NCBI RefSeq assembly: GCF_041886205.1
Contig: NZ_CP169029.1
Origin: Escherichia coli
GTDB lineage: Bacteria > Pseudomonadota > Gammaproteobacteria > Enterobacterales > Enterobacteriaceae
DNA length: 64,000 bases
Direction: 5' to 3' (one strand)
The stretch's first letter is position 1; each line of letters opens with the position of its first letter. Made by a program: the position numbers. This document shows positions 10,032-13,000 of this stretch, piece by piece.

Positions 10032-13000
10032 AAGGAAAAATCTTTTCCACCGCATTCTCATCATTCCCTGCCAGTGCCTTCAGTTGCTGACGGGTAATGC
10101 GGGTAAACACCACACCATACGCCCAGGCCAGGTTCAACCGTCCCTTATACTGACCGTCATTCTGCCGTAAGCACGGGTCTGCAGGTAAGGCATTAACCGT
10201 ATCACAGGCATAACGACGAACCTGCACCAGCGGATTTATTTCTGATTTCAGAATCCCGTCGGTTTCCAGCGTGACCTGCTCCTGGTTCGCCTTACGCAGC
10301 GTGGAAACCGTCCAGTCCTTAACCTCCAGAAATACCAGCCCGTTCTCCGGGTCAATAATGACAAAATCCGGATGCCGGTTTTTTCGTCCCACCGGAATAT
10401 CGTACCAGACAAGGCAGTCATCGTTCAGAAAGCGCTCCAGTCGTAAAGCCACCCTCCTCTCTCCGGGCGTCATTCTCTCCTCAGTGGACGCCGATACATT
10501 TATCAGTTTCGCCATAACACTCTCCTGCCACCCGATAAAAATATAACTGCCGGTATATTCCGTGCAGACAAAATATGTCGGATACTTTTTTTAAAACAGA
10601 CATAAATCCGGTTTCACAACAGGTGAAATCATCCGGACCAGCCCCCCTGGCCGGAAATTCACTGACTGAACGCGCCATAAATATCCGTGGCTTACACAGT
10701 AAAGCCACACCTGAATATTGTTAAATAACAGGCTCATAATCAAAATCACAAAAATATCTTTTCCATCCTGACTACCCTCACCAGGGCAGCCAGGATAAAA
10801 AATCAGACATGATAATAAGATGAATTGTCCACAAACTGCTGTTGCTTCAGATGGCGCAGCAACACCCTGCCCTCCGGCATAAATGTTGTTCCGTAACGAA
10901 CCAGTCCTGCGTCTTTAAGTTCTGCATCAATGACATAATGCAACTCACCTGGCTGAGTCTGTTCCGGCATCGTCACGTCGACGCGCTTAATACGTGGCTC
11001 ATACTTCAGCAGAACATCTGAAAGCACGCGCATCAGTTGATGCACCGTCCCCGGCATGCCCTGCAAAATGGTTGTCATATCCGGCAGCCCATAATCCGTT
11101 GTATCTGCTGAACATGACCGTAATTATTCCTGGTGTGGTGCCGCACTTCTTCGTAGGTGCAGCTGCAGGGGTATTCGGTAATGCAACGGGTGGACGTCGT
11201 GGTGCGATTTTGGGTGCCTTCGCTCAGGGCTTGCTTATTACCTTCCTGCCAGTATTCTTATTGCCGGTGCTGGGTGATATTGGTTTTGCTAACACCACCT
11301 TCAGTGATGCTGACTTTGGCGCACTGGGTATTTTGTTAGGGATTATCGTTCGCTAATACTTTGATGACATTAATATCCTCCAGGATTTCAGGAACGTGGA
11401 GGATATTAATTCCTCTTATTTTTTTCATTTTTCTTTCTTCCAGTCAGGACTGCATTTGATCAATCGCAAGCGCCCCGAGAAGTACGTAGCGTAAGGATTA
11501 TTTTACAGCTGAGAAGTTCCAGGGCAGCAGTTCATGCACACGGTTCGACGGCCAGTCATTGATCTTCACAATCACCTCGCGTAAAAAGCGGGGTAAGACT
11601 GCTCATCCAGCTCATCTCCACAGGTAATAATTCAACGCCAATGGCAGAAGAGGTCGTTACCGGAAGACGCCGCGAAACACGCCCTTCGTTCTGCCAGAGC
11701 CTGAGCCATTTGAAAATAACATTATCATTGACGCCATTTTCACGTGCAATCTGTGCAACACAAGCTCCAGGTTGTGATGCCAGTTCCACCATACGAAGTT
11801 TGAATTCATTCGAATAGTTTTTACGAGGTTCTTTTCGCCAGTCCTGTAATTCCATACTTAGATGTCCGTCTATATCAGATGGGCGTCTAAGTTACCAATT
11901 CTCGTCTGATGGCTACATACGGCGGTCAGTTTACGCTTACGGGTTATCTGTCTGGAGATTCAACTCTGTTTCCTCACAGGAGCTCTGTCATGGCTGATAA
12001 ATATACCGAAGCCGCTGTTGTGGGTGGCGTGGATACACATAAAGATCTGCACGTTGCTGCTGTCGTAGATGAGAACAATAAAGTCCTTGGGACCCGGTAT
12101 TTCTCCACAACACGACAAGGTTACCGGCAGATGCTGGCCTGGATGTAAGCGTACAGCGAGGGCCGTATTGACGGGGATGTGTTATTCAGCTGGCAGTGCT
12201 ATGCGCCACGGAAGCAGTTCGCTGACCCGGTTGACCGGCCAGTCTGCTATGATGCCAAACACATGGCGAAGGTAGCTTTCTGGATCCACGTCATTCAGTT
12301 TGCACGTCCCGATCAGGCTGTACAGTAGCGCTCCCCGCTCACCACCATGGTCAGAGCCGAAGAACAGGAAGTTTTTACGACCCAGACTGACCGCCCGCAG
12401 GGCATTTTCAGCGATGTTGTTGTCGATTTCCACCCAGCCATCGTTCGCATAGTACGTCAGTGCCGGCCACTGGTTAAGTGCGTACGCGAACGCCTTCGCC
12501 ACCATCAGGCTGGACAGGGGACTTTCACCCCCGAGCTGCTGAACATGCCCGGCACACAAAGAAGATCTCGGCTCAGTGGCCGGGATTAGTTATACAATTA
12601 TCTGATTGATTTTTAATATATCTTTTCTTAAATCATCGTTAATATCTGACGGTTCTAGCTGGTTTATAAGTTGCCTTATTTGGGTAAAGGTACTTTTCTG
12701 ATCTTTTAGATCTTCTCCTTTTATCGTTGATAAAGCTGCAATTAGTTCACCATCGTAATATTCACCCGCTAACGGCTCTTTAGTTAGAACTTCCAACACT
12801 CTTGGCATCAACTGATCAATACATAAATTTTGTCGGATAGCGCGGCAAAGATCTTCCACTGTTAACTTTTCAAGAGGCACATCTATGATACGTTCGAACC
12901 AGAGTTCAAGCGGTGATTGTTGCTCAGGCTCTTTTGTCATATTGATGTTTCCAATCAATTTACGTAAGGTAATCATATTCCATATCCTTTCAAGGCTGAT

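Follow-up and report, generated by a model that had tools for sequence, protein, structure and literature searches.

The locus and its components

The window, by which we mean the whole 64-kb stretch of DNA that was analysed, holds a cluster of insertion sequence (IS) fragments at 11466-12501, with pieces of a T6SS gene and a PTS gene on one side and the last module of an orphan cdi array on the other. A low core-gene identity had raised another species as the source of this DNA, and this was ruled out by the segment from ybiO through dinG, which is 98% identical to E. coli. On the T6SS side lies a 3' fragment of tssE (10803-11096, minus strand), coding for a gp25-like baseplate protein (PF04965, 4.6e-06) and fused straight to the final 260 bp of a gene for an ascorbate-type PTS permease IIC (11097-11356, plus strand; PF03611, 5.2e-23, profile positions 328-394 of 394). 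Both had been recognized as truncated genes in an earlier note on this DNA, and the equivalent position in strain JML285 is annotated in the same way, with a TssE missing its N-terminus and a PTS IIC fragment. The IIC fragment shares 92% identity with the 3' end of the intact gene at loci L002 and L006, where IIA-IIB-IIC is complete. The spacer that natively follows the PTS operon (11357-11465), in which a terminator-like hairpin is found at 11398-11416, is collinear with L001, L002 and L006.

On the cdi side, the cluster is followed by an 88-bp spacer of the UPEC 536 type (12502-12589), by cdiI (12590-12976, minus strand; PF18616, CdiI_3, 2.1e-28), which is the immunity gene of the last orphan module, and by a 307-aa orphan cdiA-CT (12973-13896, minus strand) that combines a VENN region (PT-VENN, PF04829, 3.9e-16) with an Ntox28-type tRNase toxin. 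This is an orphan module in the full sense, with a toxin and its cognate immunity gene but no secretion domain, placed downstream of the complete cdiB, cdiA and cdiI genes at 15879-27919 and in the same orientation. The module reported beside the IS cluster is thus real, and it is closely related to that of UPEC 536: CdiI is identical over 128/128 aa, the cdiA-CT matches the C-terminus of CdiA at 266/267 aa, and a block of 1,630 bp (12144-13773) that includes the spacer is 99.7% identical. The homology reaches 13773, a point some 140 bp upstream of VENN, and ends there. The 88-bp spacer is also present in strain JNU, there without the adjoining piece of ISEc8.

The cluster itself consists of four IS pieces from two families. 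A relic that bears no element name, ISEc23 and ISEc8 represent the IS66 family and share one orientation, the fourth piece belongs to IS110, and IS3 is absent. It had been described as three unrelated IS fragments, a description that holds for neither the number nor the relationship of the pieces. Names of IS were taken from the RefSeq (PGAP) annotation and not from ISfinder, and the similarity to the named elements amounts to near-identity, far above chance.

The TnpA-like reading frame belongs to the IS66 family

The ORF at 11556-11855 (minus strand) had been called an IS3 OrfA. Among the NCBIfam models it reaches 77.8 bits with IS66 TnpA (7.8e-22) and 25 bits with IS3 (1e-05), the cut-off of transpos_IS3 being 160 bits, and its protein is 95% identical to TnpA of ISEc23 over 82 aa. 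The tail of an IS66 TnpC lies downstream of it and an IS66-type terminus, GTAAGCG, upstream, and none of the features of an IS3 layout (an overlapping orfB, a DDE integrase core, a -1 frameshift, IS3-type ends) is found around it. We correct the annotation to IS66 TnpA. The frame runs uninterrupted for 99 codons and is chimeric, joining the N-terminus of ISEc23 TnpA to the TnpA of the relic and to tnpC DNA read out of frame.

If the IS3 assignment had been right, the cluster could be seen as three unrelated fragments (IS3 OrfA, IS110 and IS66 TnpC) that decayed independently and piled up at random at the boundary between T6SS and CDI. We consider this very improbable. The domain HTH_Tnp_1 (PF01527) is common to IS3 OrfA and IS66 TnpA, which gives the weak IS3 match, and the IS110 and IS66 TnpC calls that belong to this reading are right, but the difference in bit scores, the identity to ISEc23 TnpA and the presence of the ISEc23 terminal repeat in the same DNA speak against it, as do the junctions, which are exact IS termini, and the continuation of CDI-derived DNA past the T6SS remnant.

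A chimera of an IS66 relic and ISEc23

The TnpA-like ORF is also more than a lone gene fragment. A C-terminal tail of TnpC at 11498-11602 (minus strand; PF13817, 3.8e-05), missed in the earlier note, shows that the region from about 11466 to 11940 is a single internally deleted IS66-family element of about 475 bp, and this element is chimeric. In its relic half (11466-11672, minus strand), a right inverted repeat of degenerate sequence is followed by the final 34 codons of tnpC, with the stop codon at 11498-11500, a deletion joint at about 11599-11603 and the middle of tnpA. The minus-strand translation, FLREVIVKINDWPSNRVHELLPWNFSAVK followed by the stop, aligns with the TnpC C-termini of ISEc8 and ISEc23. 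The right inverted repeat is probably the degenerate GCAAGCG at 11466 (GCAAGCGCCCCG...), a placement made by spacing and weak similarity. An alternative terminus at gtaagg (11491) was rejected; it lies merely 7 bp past the tnpC stop, where ISEc8 and ISEc23 have 30-36 bp. The relic half is identical to the relic of JML285 and shares about 92% identity with those of L002 and L006, and a relic is found downstream of the PTS IIC gene in about 1,248 of the 5,426 complete E. coli genomes that form the set for all relic and junction counts given here.

The other half (11673-11940, minus strand) is the left end of ISEc23, with the left inverted repeat (terminus at 11940), the 5' UTR and the first ~60 codons of tnpA, so that about 270 bp remain of an element that is 2,532 bp long when intact. 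It is 98-100% identical to the ISEc23 copies in L005, L010, L012 and L013, and the somewhat longer stretch 11599-11940 is 98% identical to the left end of ISEc23, terminal inverted repeat included. The passage from relic to ISEc23 is a single clean crossover that can be mapped to 16 bp (11657-11672), inside a stretch of about 75 bp that the two sequences have in common: the informative sites at 11609-11656 are all of the relic type (8/8) and those at 11673-11928 all of the ISEc23 type (79/79). The element is flanked by GATCAATC on one side and GGGTTATC on the other, which do not match, so it has no 8-bp target-site duplication, as is expected for a chimeric element. The intact ISEc23 copies in L010, L012 and L013 have GTAAGCG termini and 8-bp target duplications, and the octamer GGGTTATC resembles GGTTTATC and GGGTTTTC, the target duplications of two genuine ISEc23 insertions; ISEc23 may have a GGKTTWTC-like target preference.

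We infer that relic and ISEc23 were joined when two tnpA sequences of the IS66 family underwent homologous recombination. The same mosaic could have arisen by gene conversion of the relic's 5' half from an ISEc23 copy elsewhere, with the IS110, ISEc8 and cdi DNA adjoined separately through a deletion or a transposase-mediated adjacent rearrangement. The DNA past the left terminus of the relic is different in L001, L002, L006 and the window, that is, in every genome examined, which implies that this end rearranges repeatedly, and L002 has an ISEc23 fragment and ISEc8 located exactly at that terminus. We nevertheless hold gene conversion to be unlikely, because it requires two events where one crossover suffices, because the converted tract would need to stop exactly at the ISEc23 terminus, and because the resemblance of the flank GGGTTATC to ISEc23 target duplications fits a real insertion of ISEc23 into IS110.

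An IS110 piece between two IS66 termini

The 204 bp at 11941-12144 (plus strand) are a fragment of an IS110-family element, consisting of 49 bp of the left non-coding end and transposase codons 1-52, with the ATG at 11990. The ORF at 11909-12148 (plus strand) encodes the N-terminal domain of a DEDD (RuvC-like) transposase of the IS110 type (PF01548, 6e-06; NCBIfam transpos_IS110, 9.6e-07), as had been proposed; the PF01548 match, at 26.6 bits, is slightly under the gathering score of 29 because 39 residues are all that is left. The DNA has 100% identity with IS110 fragments annotated in L007 and L008 and 98% identity with a gene of about 1 kb on plasmid pSTEC299_1 (L009). In all three of these the IS110 sequence runs on for about 170 bp further upstream, and 11940|11941 is therefore a true breakpoint inside IS110. 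The piece is thus far from a complete element, lacking those ~170 bp of the element's start and everything past codon 52. Elements of the IS110 group encode a guide (bridge) RNA in that left non-coding stretch. An Rfam scan of 10400-13100 (E<=1) returned zero families, including no IS-associated or bridge-type RNA.

The IS110 piece is bounded exactly by the left terminus of ISEc23 and the right terminus of ISEc8, and these exact termini on either side argue for nested insertions and not for random breaks. The two termini form an inverted-repeat pair (11917-11940 and 12145-12168; 24 nt, 79% complementary, 204 nt apart), and both repeats show the GTAAGCG of IS66 and do not differ from those of intact ISEc23 and ISEc8 copies.

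The ISEc8 piece (12145-12501, minus strand) represents 357 of the 2,442 bp of that element, from the terminus at 12145 with its right inverted repeat (GTAAGCGTACAG...) through the last ~107 codons of tnpC. The ORF at 12182-12559 (minus strand) was correctly read as an IS66 TnpC C-terminus (PF03050, 1e-19; PF13817, 1.2e-16), and the DNA is 98.9-99.1% identical to the full-length ISEc8 copies in L002 and L007, the homology ending at 12501 in every comparison. A SNP comparison made for a second crossover assigned the whole fragment to the 536 type, apart from two SNPs private to the window; no site close to the terminus is informative. We also considered a single IS66 element split by IS110 and rejected it: the ISEc8 tnpC piece and the ISEc23/relic tnpA piece have no detectable DNA similarity to each other's parent element (blastn, word size 11), and the order of right end, IS110 and left end is wrong for a single element.

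Distribution of the junctions

Each of the four junctions of this region has a distribution of its own among the 5,426 complete E. coli genomes, which bears out the view that the region is scarred by recombination, as does the crossover described above. The junction of truncated tssE and PTS (11096|11097) is present in 1 genome, ISEc23|IS110 in 0, IS110|ISEc8 in 5, all of them with a full-length ISEc8, and truncated ISEc8|cdiI in 200. With an exact 37-mer the ISEc23|IS110 junction was not found in the GTDB species-representative genomes either, and the exact 99-aa chimeric protein occurs on no other contig in an exact-protein look-up, so that both are known from this one assembly alone.

This rarity, together with the abundance of IS66-family repeats, which occupy thousands of places in E. 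coli, is what could be expected if the assembly had mis-joined IS repeats, especially at the crossover inside the stretch shared by relic and ISEc23. Such an artefact is highly unlikely in our judgment. The window is contiguous over its 64 kb and has core genes 98% identical to those of E. coli, repeats usually break assemblies instead of fusing them, the unique junction sits at an IS terminus and outside repeated sequence, and all other junctions are seen independently in other genomes.

The pieces are unlikely to move or to function

No piece of the cluster appears able to transpose, since no element combines both ends with a transposase, and nothing in it looks functional. The IS66 gene set tnpA-tnpB-tnpC is represented by the 5' part of tnpA (11599-11855) and by the tnpC tails at 11498-11602 and 12182-12501, and inspection of ORFs and profiles in the cluster found no tnpB and no TnpC catalytic core. 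The sole intact ORF is the chimeric TnpA remnant. As the earlier note had supposed, the fragments do not make up one intact composite element: there are no outward-facing intact ends and no target duplication, the good termini face inward onto the 204 bp of IS110, and both IS bodies are truncated.

We give hardly any credence to a functional role, either as a mobilisable composite unit or through the TnpA-like helix-turn-helix ORF as a domesticated regulator. The ORF is indeed uninterrupted, and in many genomes its relic versions bear the annotation of an intact "transposase". Against this, there is no element with two usable ends and a transposase, the two good termini point at the IS110 piece and not outward, the C-terminus of the ORF is out-of-frame tnpC DNA and its 5' half in the window is not that of the relics, and a promoter and terminator scan stayed at background, with promoter-like sites at the level of shuffled sequence (4 against a mean of 4.0).

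The extent of the CDI island

The cluster had been taken to mark the boundary between the T6SS remnant and the CDI island. The reading as a recombination scar is supported, but the boundary is right only in part, as the ISEc8 piece is the cdi module's own flank, and a cdiI with a frameshift (PF07262) is found at 1881-2445, past the T6SS remnant and about 9 kb further out. This implies that the island extends around the fragments of T6SS, helicase and PTS genes, which lie within its mosaic tail and not outside it.

Transposase and IS remnants have been described within orphan cdi arrays (Ruhe et al. 2016, PMC4927057; review PMC7662968), and under the published "fossil record" model a toxin/immunity pair that has been displaced comes with pieces of transposase and integrase genes (PMC4927057, PMC7662968). 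IS debris of this kind is therefore an ordinary and already described feature of cdi locus tails, and the interest of the region by itself is small. Downstream of the last orphan the flank is still exactly that of the same module in UPEC 536, and this supports the published view of orphan modules as displaced former ends of cdiA.

A proposed history of the cluster

Taken together, the evidence makes it probable, with good confidence, that the dead insertion sequences of the cluster form an inert mosaic where an orphan cdiA-CT/cdiI array tails off within a genomic island of E. coli. The pile-up of about 1.1 kb is what is left of nested insertions and recombination. The sequence itself shows that the last orphan module retains its usual flank, made up of the 88-bp spacer and 357 bp of ISEc8 that run up to the right terminus at 12145. 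At that terminus IS110 is cut at codon 52, and the ISEc23 left terminus at 11940 cuts it 49 bp upstream of the start codon, so that two IS66-family elements in the same orientation entered one IS110 copy 204 bp apart. ISEc23 is kept for its first ~270 bp, its tnpA switching at 11657-11672 into that of the old relic, whose usual site in some 1,250 genomes is just downstream of the PTS IIA-IIB-IIC operon, and of the operon the last 260 bp of IIC are left, fused to the tssE fragment. The recombination in tnpA appears to have welded the segment of truncated tssE, PTS and relic to the segment of IS110, ISEc8 and cdi. The DNA past the ISEc8 terminus, which varies between strains, probably reflects recombination with other ISEc8 copies or IS-adjacent deletions.

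With its crossover narrowed to 16 bp, the locus offers a worked example of IS homology stitching together the mosaic tails of CDI islands. A tentative extension, which we regard as possible though not probable, is that IS66-family remnants act as portable downstream homology arms through which islands swap cdiA-CT/cdiI cassettes, the pre-VENN region serving as the arm upstream. The idea comes from the limits of the 536-type cassette, about 140 bp upstream of VENN and exactly at the ISEc8 terminus, from the different DNA past that terminus in each lineage examined, and from the single IS66-tnpA crossover that welded this tail together. If IS66 remnants were such recurrent arms, this would help to explain the shuffling of toxin repertoires between strains.

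Comparison with known systems

ISEc8, an IS66 element with tnpA-tnpB-tnpC, is matched in the window at 99% over its right end, including the terminal repeat and the TnpC C-terminus, but 15% of it is kept here, without tnpA, tnpB, the catalytic core or the left end, and with a truncation point at 12501 that is fixed beside cdiI in 200 genomes. ISEc23, also of the IS66 family, is 98-100% identical to the window over the left repeat, the leader and ~60 codons of tnpA and has target duplications that the flanking octamer GGGTTATC resembles, whereas in place of the rest of it the crossover has brought in a relative that is diverged and has an internal deletion. That relative is the relic downstream of PTS IIABC (annotated as a transposase, for example WP_000436074.1), which occupies the same position after the IIC stop codon; it differs in that the window has exchanged its left half for ISEc23 and has a truncated PTS operon upstream, and the chimera was found in none of the complete genomes.

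The IS110 elements of pSTEC299_1 and of QA-1986 630 and 33F4, the latter two beside an AIDA-like autotransporter, are 98-100% identical over the 204 bp, and the IS110 loci in five complete genomes share the insertion point of ISEc8 at codon 52. Unlike these, the window has lost the first ~170 bp to ISEc23, and its ISEc8 is truncated where theirs is whole. The closest parallel to the cdi side is the tail of cdiBAI in PAI II of UPEC 536, with the same series of cdiA-CT, cdiI, spacer and truncated ISEc8 over the 1,630 bp. There, a full-length cdiA has the module as its working end, and a vasL fragment comes directly after the ISEc8 terminus, whereas in the window the module closes an array of orphans, and past the terminus lie IS110, the ISEc23/relic chimera and the truncated PTS and tssE genes.

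Island and flanking genes

The window is an E. coli genomic island, bordered at its right end by core genes from ybiO to dinG that are 98% identical to those of E. coli. Complete cdiB (26153-27919), cdiA (16361-26140) and cdiI (15879-16364) genes, all on the minus strand, are followed by an array of orphan modules down to the cdiI at 12590-12976, and the IS cluster occupies the 1.1 kb directly past this last immunity gene. A CP4-like island module (antirestriction, radC, yeeU/cbtA) through glnP and glnQ at 40957-47024 shows 89% identity to Br_112_kylling (L014 19527-25623), a value that averages island genes and glnPQ together, against 98% for the neighbouring ybiO-dinG core. 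The tRNA-Ser(gct) called by ARAGORN at 57864-57948 (minus strand) lies within the dinG coding region (ORF 57544-59832) and is probably a false positive.

Beside the cluster we recovered both gene fragments named in the earlier note, one of gp25/TssE (Pfam PF04965, 4.6e-06) and a C-terminal one of PTS IIC (PF03611, 5.2e-23). Their direct fusion at 11096|11097 is common only to strain JML285 among 5,426 complete E. coli genomes. A 20-pair terminator-like hairpin resembling a long inverted repeat lies directly past the tssE' stop codon (10759-10802, minus strand). The NERD/UvrD-type helicase gene is uninterrupted in the window (8728-10515, 595 codons), and window 6001-10120 is 100% identical to JML285, where two IS100 copies divide the same gene between chromosomal sites separated by about 170 kb (L001 5548-7816 and L005 11725-15005), which looks like an IS100-mediated inversion.

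A relic of an IS66-family element joined to ISEc23

Four IS-derived pieces make up the cluster; they belong to two families and arose by two processes. Of the three unrelated fragments previously described, those of IS110 and IS66 TnpC stand, and the supposed IS3 OrfA is an IS66 TnpA. The sole Pfam match of the ORF at 11556-11855 (minus strand) is PF01527, a generic helix-turn-helix common to IS3 OrfA and IS66 TnpA, and NCBIfam scores it as IS66 TnpA at 7.8e-22 (77.8 bits) versus 1e-05 (25 bits) for IS3. Since its protein is also 95% identical over 82 residues to TnpA of ISEc23 (as named by RefSeq), and the ISEc23 left end, terminal repeat included, matches DNA 11599-11940 at 98% identity, there is no IS3 in the cluster.

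The piece overlooked earlier is a TnpC tail: minus strand 11498-11602 encodes FLREVIVKINDWPSNRVHELLPWNFSAVK*, which can be aligned to the extreme C-termini of the ISEc8 and ISEc23 TnpC proteins and matches PF13817 (3.8e-05). The tail and the tnpA part therefore make up one internally deleted IS66-family element of about 475 bp (about 11466-11940). This relic, annotated just as 'transposase', lies directly past the PTS IIC stop codon in about 1,248 of the 5,426 genomes, and the upstream IIA-IIB-IIC operon is intact in, for example, CFIAFB20190157 and M11.

We aligned the window to the JML285 relic and to ISEc23 and scored the informative sites. The window is relic-type at 8/8 sites in 11609-11656 and ISEc23-type at 79/79 sites in 11673-11928, placing one clean crossover inside 11657-11672, which is part of a stretch with about 90% similarity between the two tnpA genes. 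Leftward of it the window is collinear with JML285 (98% over 10112-11814), and rightward it tracks ISEc23 as far as that element's terminus (11940). In CFIAFB20190157 (L002 6848-9771) a full ISEc8 lies within a 3' fragment of ISEc23 tnpC, its flanks overlapping by 9 bp (target duplication), and this nest adjoins the left terminus of the PTS-linked relic; IS66-family elements have thus piled up at the relic end in other lineages too.

An IS110 fragment between two IS66-type termini

The IS110 N-terminal fragment (PF01548, 6e-06) at 11941-12144 is 100% identical to IS110 fragments of QA-1986 630, 33F4 and three other genomes, and 98% identical to an IS110 gene of about 1 kb on plasmid pSTEC299_1. 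IS110 sequence extends about 170 bp further upstream in the comparison loci, so the IS110 left end is truly broken at 11940|11941, and the ISEc23 terminus made the break. At its other side the fragment stops at codon 52, where the ISEc8 right terminus (12145) interrupts it. Together the ISEc23 and ISEc8 termini, both IS66-type, make an inverted pair of 24 nt, with 204 nt between them. The IS110|ISEc8 junction recurs in five other genomes, joined there to full-length ISEc8 beside an AIDA-like autotransporter; the ISEc23|IS110 joint is absent elsewhere among the sequences searched, including all 5,426 complete genomes. Both this joint and the chimeric ORF are ordinary in kind, but neither was seen in any other sequence searched.

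The window flank GGGTTATC (11941-11948) is similar to the 8-bp duplications of intact ISEc23, GGTTTATC and GGGTTTTC, the former in traN of an F-type plasmid and the latter in a chromosome. Duplications lie at 1041-1048 and 3581-3588 of L012, with identical coordinates in L013, and that of L010 deviates (TCGCCGCC). ISEc23 may have a target preference, as seen from four insertions only.

Origin of the cluster

The first process is nested insertion, in which one IS110 copy was entered by both ISEc8 and ISEc23, and the second is recombination or deletion via IS homology. The tnpA crossover is observed directly, and comparable recombination within ISEc8 is plausible. The junctions occur in 1 (tssE'|PTS'), 0 (ISEc23|IS110), 5 (IS110|ISEc8) and 200 (truncated ISEc8|cdiI) of the 5,426 genomes, so the pieces have separate histories. 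Neither one interrupted element nor an intact composite transposon accounts for the cluster: the pieces run right end-IS110-left end, and the ISEc8 part has no detectable DNA similarity to the ISEc23 and relic parts.

None of the elements retains two ends plus a transposase, an Rfam search of the region gave no match, promoter-like sites there are at shuffle level, and the cluster shows no sign of function. The one idea deserving follow-up, itself unlikely, is that cdiA-CT/cdiI cassettes move by using IS66 remnants as their downstream homology arms. IS66-family TnpB fragments lie flush against fragments of VENN or cdiA at three further cdi loci of E. coli (L006 12430-12755, L015 10055-10186 and L005 33039-33386), which suggests that such elements are recurrently tied to cdi toxin-module boundaries.

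Comparison with UPEC 536 and published orphan arrays

The earlier reading of the cluster as the boundary between a T6SS remnant and the CDI island holds only in part. A frameshifted cdiI at 1881-2445 (minus strand; PF07262 at 1.1e-13 and 1.2e-04 on two overlapping ORFs) sits beyond the vasL-helicase-tssE' remnant, adjoining an ISL3 transposase (2509-3747) and another IS66-family element (4272-6054), so CDI-derived DNA reaches about 9 kb beyond the cluster. In UPEC 536, unlike in the window, a vasL fragment comes after the ISEc8 terminus. Together these place the T6SS, helicase and PTS fragments in the island's mosaic tail, not outside it.

The IS66 TnpC C-terminal fragment (PF03050, 1e-19; PF13817, 1.2e-16) is 99% identical to ISEc8 over 12145-12501, and the homology ends at 12501 in all comparisons. 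In JNU (L015 3359-5484) a 536-type cdiI and its 97-bp downstream spacer lie, without the ISEc8 fragment, beside a reverse-transcriptase-domain gene, possibly a retron, and the toxin side is fused to another IS66-family element.

Window 12144-13773 is 99.7% identical to UPEC 536, with the same CdiI and a toxin one residue apart, but in 536 a full-length cdiA has this module as its working end. This block and the 200-genome truncated-ISEc8|cdiI junction indicate that the last orphan, a module that was once terminal, keeps its native downstream flank. Remnants of transposases, integrases and IS in orphan cdi arrays are already known, having been explicitly described (PMC4927057; PMC7662968), and the retained flank agrees with the 'fossil record' model published for how orphans form (PMC4927057).
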